Positions 4,801 through 7,800 of a DNA stretch of 47,016 bases are shown here, piece by piece (positions within the stretch are counted from its first letter, which is position 1; each line of letters opens with the position of its first letter). Source of the DNA: a virus (lineage: Duplodnaviria; Heunggongvirae; Uroviricota; Caudoviricetes). The DNA lies in the IMG/VR virus record IMGVR_UViG_2713897054_000007. The stretch is one strand, 5' to 3'. Made by a program: the position numbers.

Positions 4801-7800
4801 AGATCCGCGATGAGGCTGCAAAGTCGCCGGTTGTGTCCGAGTTGCGTAAAGAAATAAAAAACGCGCAGGGGCAGGCTGTAAAGGATGCTGCAATTAAGAC
4901 AACCGAAGTTGTAGGGACTCTCAGGGAAGAAACGACAAGAACGATTGGTGGTATTGAAACCCGCATTAGCACACTGGATTCGTCAACCAGTGAATCGCTT
5001 AATGAGGTCGACAAGCGTATCACTAAACTGGATAAAGAAGGCGGTGAAGCTTTTCTTGCGATGTGGTCAAAAAAAGCGGGGGTTGATGGTATCACTGCGG
5101 GGATCGGGATTGTCGCCGGAAAAGACGGTGAAGGCAGGCCTGTAAGTCAGGTTGCAATTTCTGCGTCGCAGTTGTTTGTCTTTGACCCGAATAATCCGGA
5201 TAACACAGCCTATCCGTTTGCGGTATCAGGTGGCAAGGTAGTGATCCCGAAAGCGATGATTTATGACGCGGTGATTGAAACACTGGTGTCGCGGAAGGTT
5301 GTGGCGGATGAGGTAAAAGCCGGGGTAAGTATCACTTCGCCAGTTATCCGGAGTGCCGTTATTCAGAACGGAAACTTTCAGGTTGATTCTCAGGGTAACC
5401 TGAATATTGGAGGCCTTTTCAGTGTTACGTCACAAGGGCAACTGACAATTCGTTACTCTAATCAGAATGTAGGACTGGTGATCCGCAATGATAAAATTGA
5501 GGTTTATGATCAGAATGGACGACTGGCTGTTCGCATAGGCAGATTACGCTGATCAGGAGGTGAGTATTGGAATACGGTTTTGCCATTTATAACAGAAATA
5601 ACGTTAATGTTACGGGCGTGCTGACTCCGGTATTTTTCCTGGACAGATTTACAGCGGAGTCTGGCTCAAAGACGTACACGAATAAACCCGACGGGAAATC
5701 ATTGCAGGCTGTATGTTGTTTATTTCCCTGGAATAATGTATTTGCGGATCGGAAAGTACCGAAGATAACCATTAATGGCAATACGGTGACGTGGTCGAAT
5801 CTTGAGCAGGGTATGGGATCTTATATTTATACATTCTGGGGATAAGTGTCATGTATGGTTTGAGCATTATGAAGCCGGATGGCAGCGTATGGATAAGTCC
5901 AGGTTTTACGCCGCAGTGTCTGATCAACAAAGGCACCATACCGGCGACTGAAAAGTCTTTTTTTAAAACATCAATCCCGTCAGGCAAAAGTTGTTTTTTC
6001 TTTATCAGAACAGAGAAGAAGGCCGATGTCATGTACACGCATGAACAGATTGATGGATATCATGCACTAAGGCTTCATGTAATTGTCAGGGGAACGAACC
6101 CTGGTGTTACGACGGTTTATGCTTTCGCGAATATGGTTACTCCACCTTCTGAGTATGGTATCGCCATGTATAACCCGGACGGTGAGATGATTTATCATGG
6201 CGAAATGATGCTGCTTGACGCGAAGTTAATACCTGTTGATATCAAATTTGAAAAGGACCTTGGATATCCATGCGCAATCATGCCTGCACTGGTCGGGTAT
6301 TATAACTGGAAAAGAACTCCTTATGATCGACCGATTTATACCACATCCACTGGTGCTACAGGAAATAAAATATATTCCTGTGAGCATTATTCCGGCGGTG
6401 CAACATGGGATATTCGAAAGCCGTATATAGATAAGGTCCTAGTTATTAATACATCAGTATATGATTAGTTGAAGCGAGTCTTTAATATTCATTTAAAATG
6501 TCTAAAAAGATGTATTATTAAAAAGTTTAGCGTGTTATCTGAATACAGGATATCTTAAATGAAGAGTATAGCAACACTGGTTGTGTGTGCAATCTCCGGG
6601 ATTGCCTGTGTAAATTTATCTGCACATGCAGCAGAAGGAAACCATACAATTTCTCTGGGGTATGCGCACTTTCAGTTTCCGGGACTGAAGGATTTTGTAA
6701 AGGATGCGACTGCTCATAACAGGGAGACTTTCAGTCATTTCGTCAACAGAAACTACTTTTCTTCATTGGGCGAATATACAGATGGTCGGGTCAGTGGATA
6801 TGAAGGCAAGGATAAAAATCCACAGGGCATTAATATCAGGTATCGCTACGAGATAACGGATGATTTTGGCGTTATCACCTCTTTTACATGGACGCGTTCT
6901 CTCACTAACTCACAGACATTTATTGATGTGCAGTCAGCCGATCATACCAGGAAGATTAAGAATCCGGCAGCTTCTGCCAGAACGGATATCAGGGCGAATT
7001 ACTGGAGTCTGTTAGCGGGGCCTTCATGGCGGGTTAATCAGTACATGAGCTTATATGCGATGGCAGGGATGGGCGTTGCTAAAGTTAGCGCTGACCTGAA
7101 AATTAAGGACAATATTAACAGTAGTGGCGGATTTTCTGAAAGCAACAGCACGAAAAAAAACTCCCTTGCGTGGGCTGCAGGTGCACAGTTTAACCTGAAT
7201 GAGAGTGTTACACTGGATGTGGCTTACGAAGGTTCCGGCTCTGGCGACTGGCGCACGAGTGGAATTACTGCTGGCATTGGCCTGAAATTCTAACCTGTAT
7301 CCGGTAACCGTTTACTACCCGCTGTGATGGCGGGTTTTTTATTGCCCATACAGGGCAAAAACCGTAAATTATGCGTGGGTGCCTTTCGGCTGATGGCTGG
7401 AGGGTGAACCTGAAGGCCTGATGTGGAAAGGCCCCGAGTCAACTTAACGTTAACCCGAGGCCCTAACACTTCGTACCTTGACAAGTAGAAGGTTAGCGCC
7501 TCTCCACTCAGGAGGCAAGCGCTATGTCGCAAAAATCGCTTATCACCGTCACAATTTGTATGACGGTTATCTTCACTATCTGGATGTTGCACGGTTCGCT
7601 GTGTGAGTTCCGGCTGAATTTGTGGGGAGCGGAGTTTGCGGCGTTCTTACAGTGTAAGCAGTAGGAAAACCGCGACGGGGACGAAAGTCCCCGTCAACTG
7701 GTTGCTGAGGTTCAGCCGATATGGCACCCGTTTCAGGTGAGAGAATGAACGATAAAATTCTCCGGTATATGCAGCGTGTGGTGAGAAATTCCCGCAACCC

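Follow-up and report, generated by a model that had tools for sequence, protein, structure and literature searches.

A probable hok/Sok-family type I toxin–antitoxin cassette lacking a canonical mok start, located after lom in a 933W-like Shiga toxin phage

Introduction

The paradigms for type I toxin–antitoxin systems belonging to the hok/Sok family are R1 hok/sok (PMC9841398) and hokW-sokW of Shiga toxin (Stx) phages (PMC8621323). In R1, one element at the 5' end of the hok mRNA has both a 3' partner and an internal partner, which is the logic of the tac, fbi and ucb elements (PMC9841398), and HokW is a peptide of 51 amino acids (MKQQKAM...DYESEK, PMC8621323). Here, we analyzed a further member of the family in a viral DNA of 47,016 nucleotides (Duplodnaviria; Heunggongvirae; Uroviricota; Caudoviricetes; IMG/VR record IMGVR_UViG_2713897054_000007), the whole of which is referred to as the window. 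Positions 7342-7729 most probably form a complete hok/Sok-family type I toxin–antitoxin cassette (Hok cluster 72, phrog_251), carried as a moron after lom in a 933W-like Stx phage.

According to the text of a survey of Hok peptides (Escalera-Maurer et al., bioRxiv 10.1101/2025.08.07.668861), prophages are enriched in hok, and the function of prophage hok is left for future study. The survey text restricts the work to the coding sequence and explicitly sets aside Mok, Sok and the mRNA structure. It gives 42 of 45 Hok constructs as toxic, the non-toxic ones being 19_179, 60_1482 and 69_1540, none of which belongs to cluster 72. The database T1TAdb marks leader open reading frames (ORFs) only where they had been described previously. 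A literature search by locus tag and peptide string returned no paper on the lom-adjacent hok locus, and a preprint on the Pas small RNA mentions hokW only in its reference list.

Results

A Hok-family toxin gene after lom

A sequence-only reading of the window had proposed an unannotated Hok-like toxin ORF of 46 codons with a consensus ribosome-binding site, as part of a type I toxin–antitoxin locus in a moron position. The ORF was found as described, with AGGAGG at 7510-7515 followed by an 8-nt gap to the ATG.

7524-7664, + strand: hok toxin gene, ATG start, 46 codons, peptide MSQKSLITVTICMTVIFTIWMLHGSLCEFRLNLWGAEFAAFLQCKQ; RefSeq WP_000078907.1, Hok 60%-identity cluster 72

A search of the peptide with Pfam PF01848 (HOK_GEF, gathering score 22 bits) gave 33.2 bits (E = 4e-8) for residues 8-44 on profile positions 6-42 of 42. 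The phrog_251 profile ('MokW-like host killing', moron category) matched residues 1-46 on profile positions 2-49 of 50 with 85.8 bits (E = 2.8e-24), and RefSeq/PGAP names exactly this ORF 'Hok/Gef family protein' (WP_000078907.1). The Hok-family match is far beyond chance. In an alignment with R1 Hok, HokB, HokC, HokD, HokE, PndA and HokW, the family-conserved residues of the peptide were C12 and T14 within the helix, L26-C27-E28 after the helix, E37, and C44 at the C terminus; they correspond to the conserved Hok logo positions C16, T18, L30, C31, E32, E41 and 48 in the literature.

The hok frame was intact, with 46 codons, in all 17 homologous copies (75-100% DNA identity). Three close relatives differed from the window in the hok ORF by synonymous to nonsynonymous changes of 4:0, 3:0 and 6:0. 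Judged by these comparisons, the ORF is under purifying selection and is a genuine Hok-family membrane toxin gene; it is the only Hok-like ORF within the window. In the text of the survey, the identical peptide is construct 72_1589 (LRP157, 'high-abundance cluster'), one of the homologues cloned for toxicity assays under arabinose induction. From that text, we infer that the peptide is toxic.

The term 'unannotated' held for the older records of Sakai Sp5, 933W and VT2-Sakai, which lack the gene, but not for RefSeq/PGAP and several phage records, in which the same ORF appears as 'small toxic polypeptide', 'prophage host toxic membrane protein' or 'MokW-like host killing'. At least 1000 contigs of public collections carried the exact hok sequence. 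Naming is inconsistent, ranging from 'protein HokA' and 'MokW-like' (the product is neither Mok nor HokW) to nothing at all in Sakai, 933W and VT2-Sakai, and the true hokW of Sakai carries the label 'regulatory protein MokC for HokC'.

Edges and distribution of the cassette

The cassette extends over approximately 390 bp (7342-7729) between lom (6559-7293; Pfam Ail_Lom, 111 bits) and the next tail-region gene. Its upstream boundary was located by a terminator scan.

7317-7341, + strand: intrinsic terminator of lom and upstream moron boundary, stem ACCCGC..GCGGGT followed by a T-run

In copies of 75-85% identity from unrelated contexts, the match was limited to window positions 7357-7729, and in an alignment of 17 sequences similarity started at an invariant ATTGCC and stopped at GGCACCC. 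The cassette follows lom in lambdoid or Stx prophages; in P2-like prophages it comes directly after ogr, at their end, and other copies lie between gpJ and a tail-fibre gene or beside ykgM. A sensitive search with a 396-nt query found it in 1750 of 5426 complete E. coli genomes (about a third), in up to nine places per genome. This distribution suggests that the cassette moves as a unit between phage types.

A cassette of ~373 bp with its own terminator, following ogr directly at the very end of a P2-like prophage, was observed in many E. coli strains (records L005, L006, L009-L015) and in one Salmonella (L048); further contexts were present in L007 and L008. Two very short contigs, one of 857 bp from Xanthomonas pisi (L030) and one from a Planococcaceae metagenome-assembled genome (L034), were 92% and 80% identical to the cassette, respectively, and most likely represent contamination with Enterobacteriaceae DNA.

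Shigella phage Ss-VASD, Escherichia phage P13771 and the Stx2a prophage of O104:H4 strains share 99.8% identity with the region, and 933W, VT2-Sakai and many other Stx phages share 96-99%. By sequence, the window represents a 933W-like Stx phage.

Promoters on both strands and a predicted antisense RNA

Putative promoters were assigned on both strands on the basis of conservation and of identity to sokW.

7342-7370, + strand: hok promoter, −35 TTGCCC (7342-7347), 17-nt spacer, −10 TAAATT (7365-7370); conserved across contexts
7518-7490, − strand: Sok promoter, −35 TTGCCT (7518..7513), 17-nt spacer, −10 TAACCT (7495..7490); the −35 overlaps the hok Shine–Dalgarno (SD) sequence
7483-7425, − strand: predicted Sok-like antisense RNA of ~60 nt, with a variable single-stranded 5' tail, a 16-bp hairpin (7464..7428) and then UUU; both ends are inferred

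The hok promoter has 8 of 12 consensus matches; its spacing is fixed, and the −10 hexamer reads TAnATT in 16 of 17 copies and TACAGT in L007. The Sok −10 was invariant (17 of 17 copies), and hexamers and spacing of TTGCCT-17-TAACCT are the same as those of the sokW promoter in the hokW leader. Primer YO-421, which yields a 'promoter-less' sokW with loss of antitoxin activity, swaps exactly the sokW −10 (PMC8621323).

For the predicted Sok RNA, the counterpart of the segment probed for sokW RNA with oligonucleotide YO-592, a folding energy of −34.3 kcal/mol (z = −5.8) was calculated, and the hairpin was kept in all 15 distinct variants. Within the leader, variability peaks at window 7466-7485 (alignment A1 columns ~148-162), a patch that coincides with the predicted Sok 5' tail and the loop of the target hairpin described below. 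Sok specificity would therefore differ between copies, of which a genome holds up to nine.

Alternative pairings of the hok mRNA

The Rfam model RF01794 ('sok', gathering score 59 bits) matched 7377-7535 on the + strand over its full length with 37.9 bits (E = 1.8e-6). A Sok match on the opposite strand had been anticipated in the sequence-only reading, and the model did not behave in this way. It also hit the hokW leader, run as a control, on the hokW strand, and therefore describes the hok leader in sense orientation, with the present locus as a diverged relative. The following elements were assigned in the predicted hok mRNA.

7377-7393, + strand: predicted 5' end of the hok mRNA with a tac-like element, GGGUGCCUUUCGGCUGA, starting with GGGUGCC; RF01794 position 1 aligns to 7377; nearly invariant
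7425-7435, + strand: ucb-like box, alternative partner of the 5' element, GGAAAGGCCCC; from the RNAalifold consensus and the minimum free energy (MFE) fold of the truncated mRNA; lowest-variability bin
7457-7502, + strand: Sok-target hairpin of the 3'-trimmed mRNA, GAGGC.CUAAC...GUUAG.GCCUC, with the variable patch in its loop; −20.8 kcal/mol, z = −4.9
7494-7524, + strand: hok SD hairpin, UAGCGC/GCGCUA and UCUCC/GGAGG, hiding the SD (7510-7515) and the first base of the AUG; −15 kcal/mol
7668-7703 (core 7674-7695), + strand: conserved 3' hairpin, −23.6 kcal/mol, z = −5.0; 100% paired, four covarying pairs
7712-7729, + strand: fbi-like element, UCAGCCGAUAUGGCACCC, complementary to the 5' end; the last conserved bases of the cassette

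In the predicted full-length fold (7377-7735, z = −6.2), 7377-7383 and 7386-7393 paired with 7723-7729 and 7712-7719, respectively, and the same closure of 5' and 3' ends was obtained in the MFE fold of a 480-nt transcript (7377-7856). Projected on 13 homologues, the full-length structure was 89.4% paired versus 36-43% for slid partners, with 14 compensatory pairs versus 3-9, a comparison in which the structure is favoured over the slid controls by its derivation from the window sequence itself; none of 500 shuffles reached the observed count of compensatory pairs. The closing tac/fbi helices were 97.8% and 82.4% paired across the 13 sequences, with one GC->GU->AU series. The lower helix of the SD hairpin was 98.7% paired, and the upper one had two compensatory pairs.

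Both in the RNAalifold consensus and in the predicted fold of a 3'-trimmed mRNA (7377-7700), the 5' end switched to GGAAAGGCCCC at 7425-7435. The target hairpin was part of the truncated MFE fold and of the RNAalifold consensus, and its homologue in the Rfam model is the third hairpin. Variable positions of the leader fall in predicted loops, and invariant ones in tac, ucb, the Sok −10 and the stretch that pairs with the start codon. A species-wide scan for the pattern AGGTTAGCGCCTC-N10-16-CAAG gave mostly chance matches and four real homologues that did not widen the diversity at the 5' end; the covariation of tac and fbi was therefore not strengthened.

The stem-loop noted earlier 3' of the ORF is present at 7668-7703. 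It was rejected as a hok terminator, as the + strand lacks a U-run; it is instead a conserved, covarying hairpin that precedes fbi and, by analogy with R1, probably protects the processed mRNA at its 3' end. Only on the minus strand is this hairpin (7673-7696) terminator-like, with the tail CGGTTTTCCT, and it could there stop antisense transcription entering hok from downstream.

Copies of the P2 and ykgM types have a canonical terminator (CCCGCAG..CTGCGGG and a T-run) 20-30 nt after fbi, as in R1. For the window, the first candidate lies further downstream.

7821-7856, + strand: first + strand intrinsic terminator after the cassette, inside the ORF 7745-8122 (phrog_610, function unassigned)

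Its hairpin is strong and bidirectional (ACGCCTGC..GCAGGCGT followed by TTTTGTTTTG) and conserved in all lom-type copies. The hok mRNA of lysogens may end here.

Upstream reading frames and access to the hok Shine–Dalgarno sequence

Two reading frames upstream of hok were considered.

7478-7606, + strand: mok-frame relic, 42 codons from TTG, the sole possible start, in the mokW register (AGG UUA GCx); not conserved
7423-7488, + strand: candidate replacement leader ORF, GTG start, 21 codons, TAG at 7488, wholly inside the Sok-complementary stretch

The first is the overlapping frame for which a mok-like role had been suggested. The frame exists and is the positional homologue of mokW, and an SD-like GAGG is kept at the mok-SD position, but the ATG is lost. 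The TTG at 7478 occurs in only 3 of 17 copies and is absent from the 96.7%-identical Sp5 copy; a mok with this start was not upheld as a conserved feature, and a functional mok is unsupported. First-start analysis of the 17 copies revealed nine with no ATG, GTG or TTG upstream of hok in either alternative frame.

Accessibility of the hok SD was calculated for the 12 copies with an intact SD. The ensemble probability of an unpaired SD was ~0.006 in the full-length mRNA, ~0.095 after 3' trimming, and ~0.008 after 3' trimming with the Sok target blocked. The direction of the change was consistent in 12 of 12 copies, yet the SD stayed at least ~70% paired. With so small an absolute opening, direct unmasking of the SD received only modest support as a full explanation.

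The comparisons and modelled folds allow a proposal that we make tentatively and regard as doubtful, namely that cluster-72 cassettes are a mok-less hok variant. The tac/ucb/fbi switch would act directly on the consensus SD of hok itself, with the anti-SD strand captured by the target hairpin (7457-7502) and returned on Sok binding; the hypervariable Sok tail and target loop would give orthogonal specificities, so that up to nine copies could coexist.

Alternatively, a leader ORF might be used after all, as in R1, with translation of a short upstream ORF (GTG 7423 to TAG 7488, or the TTG 7478 frame) opening the SD hairpin and Sok blocking that ORF. We consider this possible, if short of likely. 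Translation of mok up to the hok SD is mandatory in R1 (PMC9841398), and the predicted SD is mostly paired even in the trimmed mRNA. An ORF from the invariant AUGUG (ATG 7421/GTG 7423 in the window) extends to 45 nt or less from the hok AUG, or past it, in 14 of 16 distinct leaders, an occurrence for which ~62% is expected by chance according to our own estimate. In the window, this ORF (7423-7488) ends 6 nt before the SD hairpin, and all of it is covered by the Sok-complementary stretch. Its frame, stop position and peptide are variable, however, two copies are without such an ORF, and its start is base-paired in both predicted conformations. For the TTG 7478 frame, the rarity of the start codon counts against use, as does the absence from the cassette of a hokW-type ATG 8 nt after GAGG.

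Other features of the window

The window resembles a circularly permuted phage genome, with a 2806-aa ORF (10891-19311), a short att-proximal segment and a leftward 444-aa ORF (19849-21183), which is probably the integrase. Rfam matches above the gathering score were found at 45-167(−), 24552-24637(−), 25087-25176(−), 34608-34695(−), 34720-34795(−) and 45669-45882(+), comprising isrC, two sRNA-Xcc1, a C4 antisense RNA, isrK and STnc100. A few genes downstream of hok, a small ORF at window ~9333-9584 (from L138 9260-9511) has the RefSeq label 'bacteriocin' (WP_000540391.1).

Discussion

At the level of sequence and comparison, the analysis demonstrates the toxin family, selection on the ORF, the cassette edges, conserved promoters on both strands and alternative pairings. 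Support for the earlier assignment, a type I toxin–antitoxin locus carried as a moron after lom, comes from the names given by Pfam, PHROG and RefSeq, from the full-length though sub-threshold match to the Rfam hok-leader model, from a conserved antisense promoter with the hexamers and spacing of sokW, and from a 5'–3' fold-back of the tac/fbi type.

Several points weigh against a complete cassette of this family, in addition to the origin of the tested structure and the small opening of the SD mentioned above. The leader remains below the Rfam gathering score (37.9 versus 59 bits), and the true hokW leader reaches 113.5 bits on the hokW strand. A strict sigma-70 scan reported neither the hok nor the Sok promoter. 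Among the variants of the Sok hairpin no covariation was found, the stem being merely conserved, and only UUU follows it. As tac, ucb and fbi are almost invariant, covariation support for the switch helices is thin and amounts to one series. The cassette has no ATG at the site homologous to the mokW start, where the hokW leader has one 8 nt after GAGG. Lom-type copies are without a post-fbi terminator, the next gene start (ATG 7721 or 7745) coming instead, which leaves the 3' end of the hok mRNA putative. All RNA ends at the locus are predicted. The literature, finally, reports the chromosomal hok loci of E. coli K-12 to be largely inactive.

The last point would be in line with an inactive, decaying relic that is neither expressed nor regulated, as proposed for most of the K-12 loci, and the loss of the canonical mok, the loss of an own terminator in the lom-type cassette and the low Rfam score fit such a decay. 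The coding sequence tells otherwise, as the ORF is intact in every copy aligned and close relatives have drifted at synonymous positions only. Conservation is highest in the promoters, tac, ucb, fbi and the antisense −10, helices are maintained by compensatory changes, the cassette has inserted independently in several contexts and is carried by 1750 of 5426 complete genomes, and the identical peptide belongs, according to the survey text, to the set found toxic in overexpression assays. We therefore hold a relic to be quite improbable.

That the locus is the already characterized hokW-sokW, as might be assumed from the label 'MokW-like host killing' in some phage records and in phrog_251 and from the carriage of hokW-sokW by the same phage family, has virtually no chance of being correct and is refuted by sequence comparison, since neither the hokW primers nor its leader sequence occur in the window, HokW (51 aa) is only 33% identical and belongs to 60%-identity cluster 35 rather than 72, hokW of Sakai Sp5 (ECs_1245) lies 13 kb downstream and on the other strand of the present locus, which is found there unannotated between lom (ECs_1236) and ECs_1237, and the ~4-kb Sp5 segment with hokW is missing from the window phage. 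Collinearity of the window with Sp5 extends to 19345; the window then continues at the att-proximal end, without a ~4.1-kb segment (ECs_1244-1251) that includes hokW-sokW (window 19345-19850 versus L003 32006-36442).

For the hok/Sok-type cassette, the following course may be envisaged by analogy with R1 and hokW-sokW. The hok mRNA would be made constitutively and locked by 5'–3' pairing, with the SD held in a hairpin. Slow 3' trimming back to the hairpin at 7668-7703 would remove fbi, and the 5' end would re-pair with ucb. The target hairpin 7457-7502 would then form and be bound by abundant, unstable Sok, leading to decay by RNase III. Once the supply of Sok stops, Hok would be translated and inserted into the inner membrane, resulting in depolarization and cell death. 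As the canonical mok start is missing, hok would either be unmasked directly, with the target hairpin taking the anti-SD strand, or be coupled to the short leader ORF from GTG 7423 to 7488.

The hok gene is co-oriented with the late operon, and antiterminated late transcripts should therefore read through hok and collide with Sok transcription. Such read-through opposing Sok favours, with low confidence, a hokW-like contribution to killing and lysis; help in killing and lysing the host upon induction, of the kind reported for hokW, is a possible role that we would not yet call likely. Exclusion of superinfecting phages and prophage addiction appear unlikely, one as much as the other, and the absence of any measurable role less likely still.

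The toxin call is correct, ordinary and already known. Its value as a discovery is small, with the toxin already in PGAP, Pfam and PHROG and the identical peptide in a published toxicity screen. Mildly new are only two points, the missing canonical mok and the lost terminator; they pose a modest, testable question, namely how hok translation is activated in an abundant prophage-borne cluster, and the mok-less architecture is the sole aspect that might repay experiment. In practice, the gene is missed in older reference records, is mislabelled 'HokA' or 'MokW-like', and is easily mistaken for hokW-sokW, which has been studied by experiment and is absent from this O104:H4-type Stx2a phage. Conclusions drawn for hokW, such as assistance in lysis on induction, are not simply transferable.

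Comparison with known hok systems

The text of the cluster 72 survey covers the 46-aa peptide itself (72_1589) and a P2-prophage variant (72_1621), both cloned for arabinose-induced toxicity assays and assigned to a high-abundance cluster; that text does not deal with the boundaries of the cassette, the switch elements, the Sok promoter or the missing mok.

HokA of E. coli K-12 provides the best match among NCBIfam models, and some sources name the protein 'HokA'. The score for NF007290 (38.4 bits) is far below the equivalog cut-off of 89, however, and HokA belongs to 60%-identity cluster 93 rather than 72; by sequence, the name 'HokA' is an over-annotation. As in HokA, both periplasmic cysteines (C27, C44) are hard-coded, and TadA recoding is therefore not needed.

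Of the two Stx-phage loci, experimental data are at hand only for hokW-sokW of Sakai prophage 5, comprising the dependence on RNase III and Hfq and the RecA-dependent production of Hok on induction (PMC8621323). It differs from the cassette in an intact mok of 70 codons and in the Rfam score (113.5 versus 37.9 bits here). Common to both are the carriage by Stx phages, TTGCCT-17-TAACCT and the leader architecture of the Rfam model.

R1 hok/sok is the more distant relative in its peptide (26% identity; 52 aa versus 46 aa in the cassette). The cassette further differs from it by the lack of a mok start at the homologous site, by a consensus SD of hok's own, by the lack of a post-fbi terminator in the lom type and by the sub-threshold Rfam leader. 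Nevertheless, the two share a small transmembrane toxin with the C..T and LCE motifs, an antisense gene in the leader whose promoter overlaps the region of hok translation start, a 5' tac with fbi (3') and ucb (internal) as partners, a stable 3' hairpin upstream of fbi, and GAGG at the mok-SD position.

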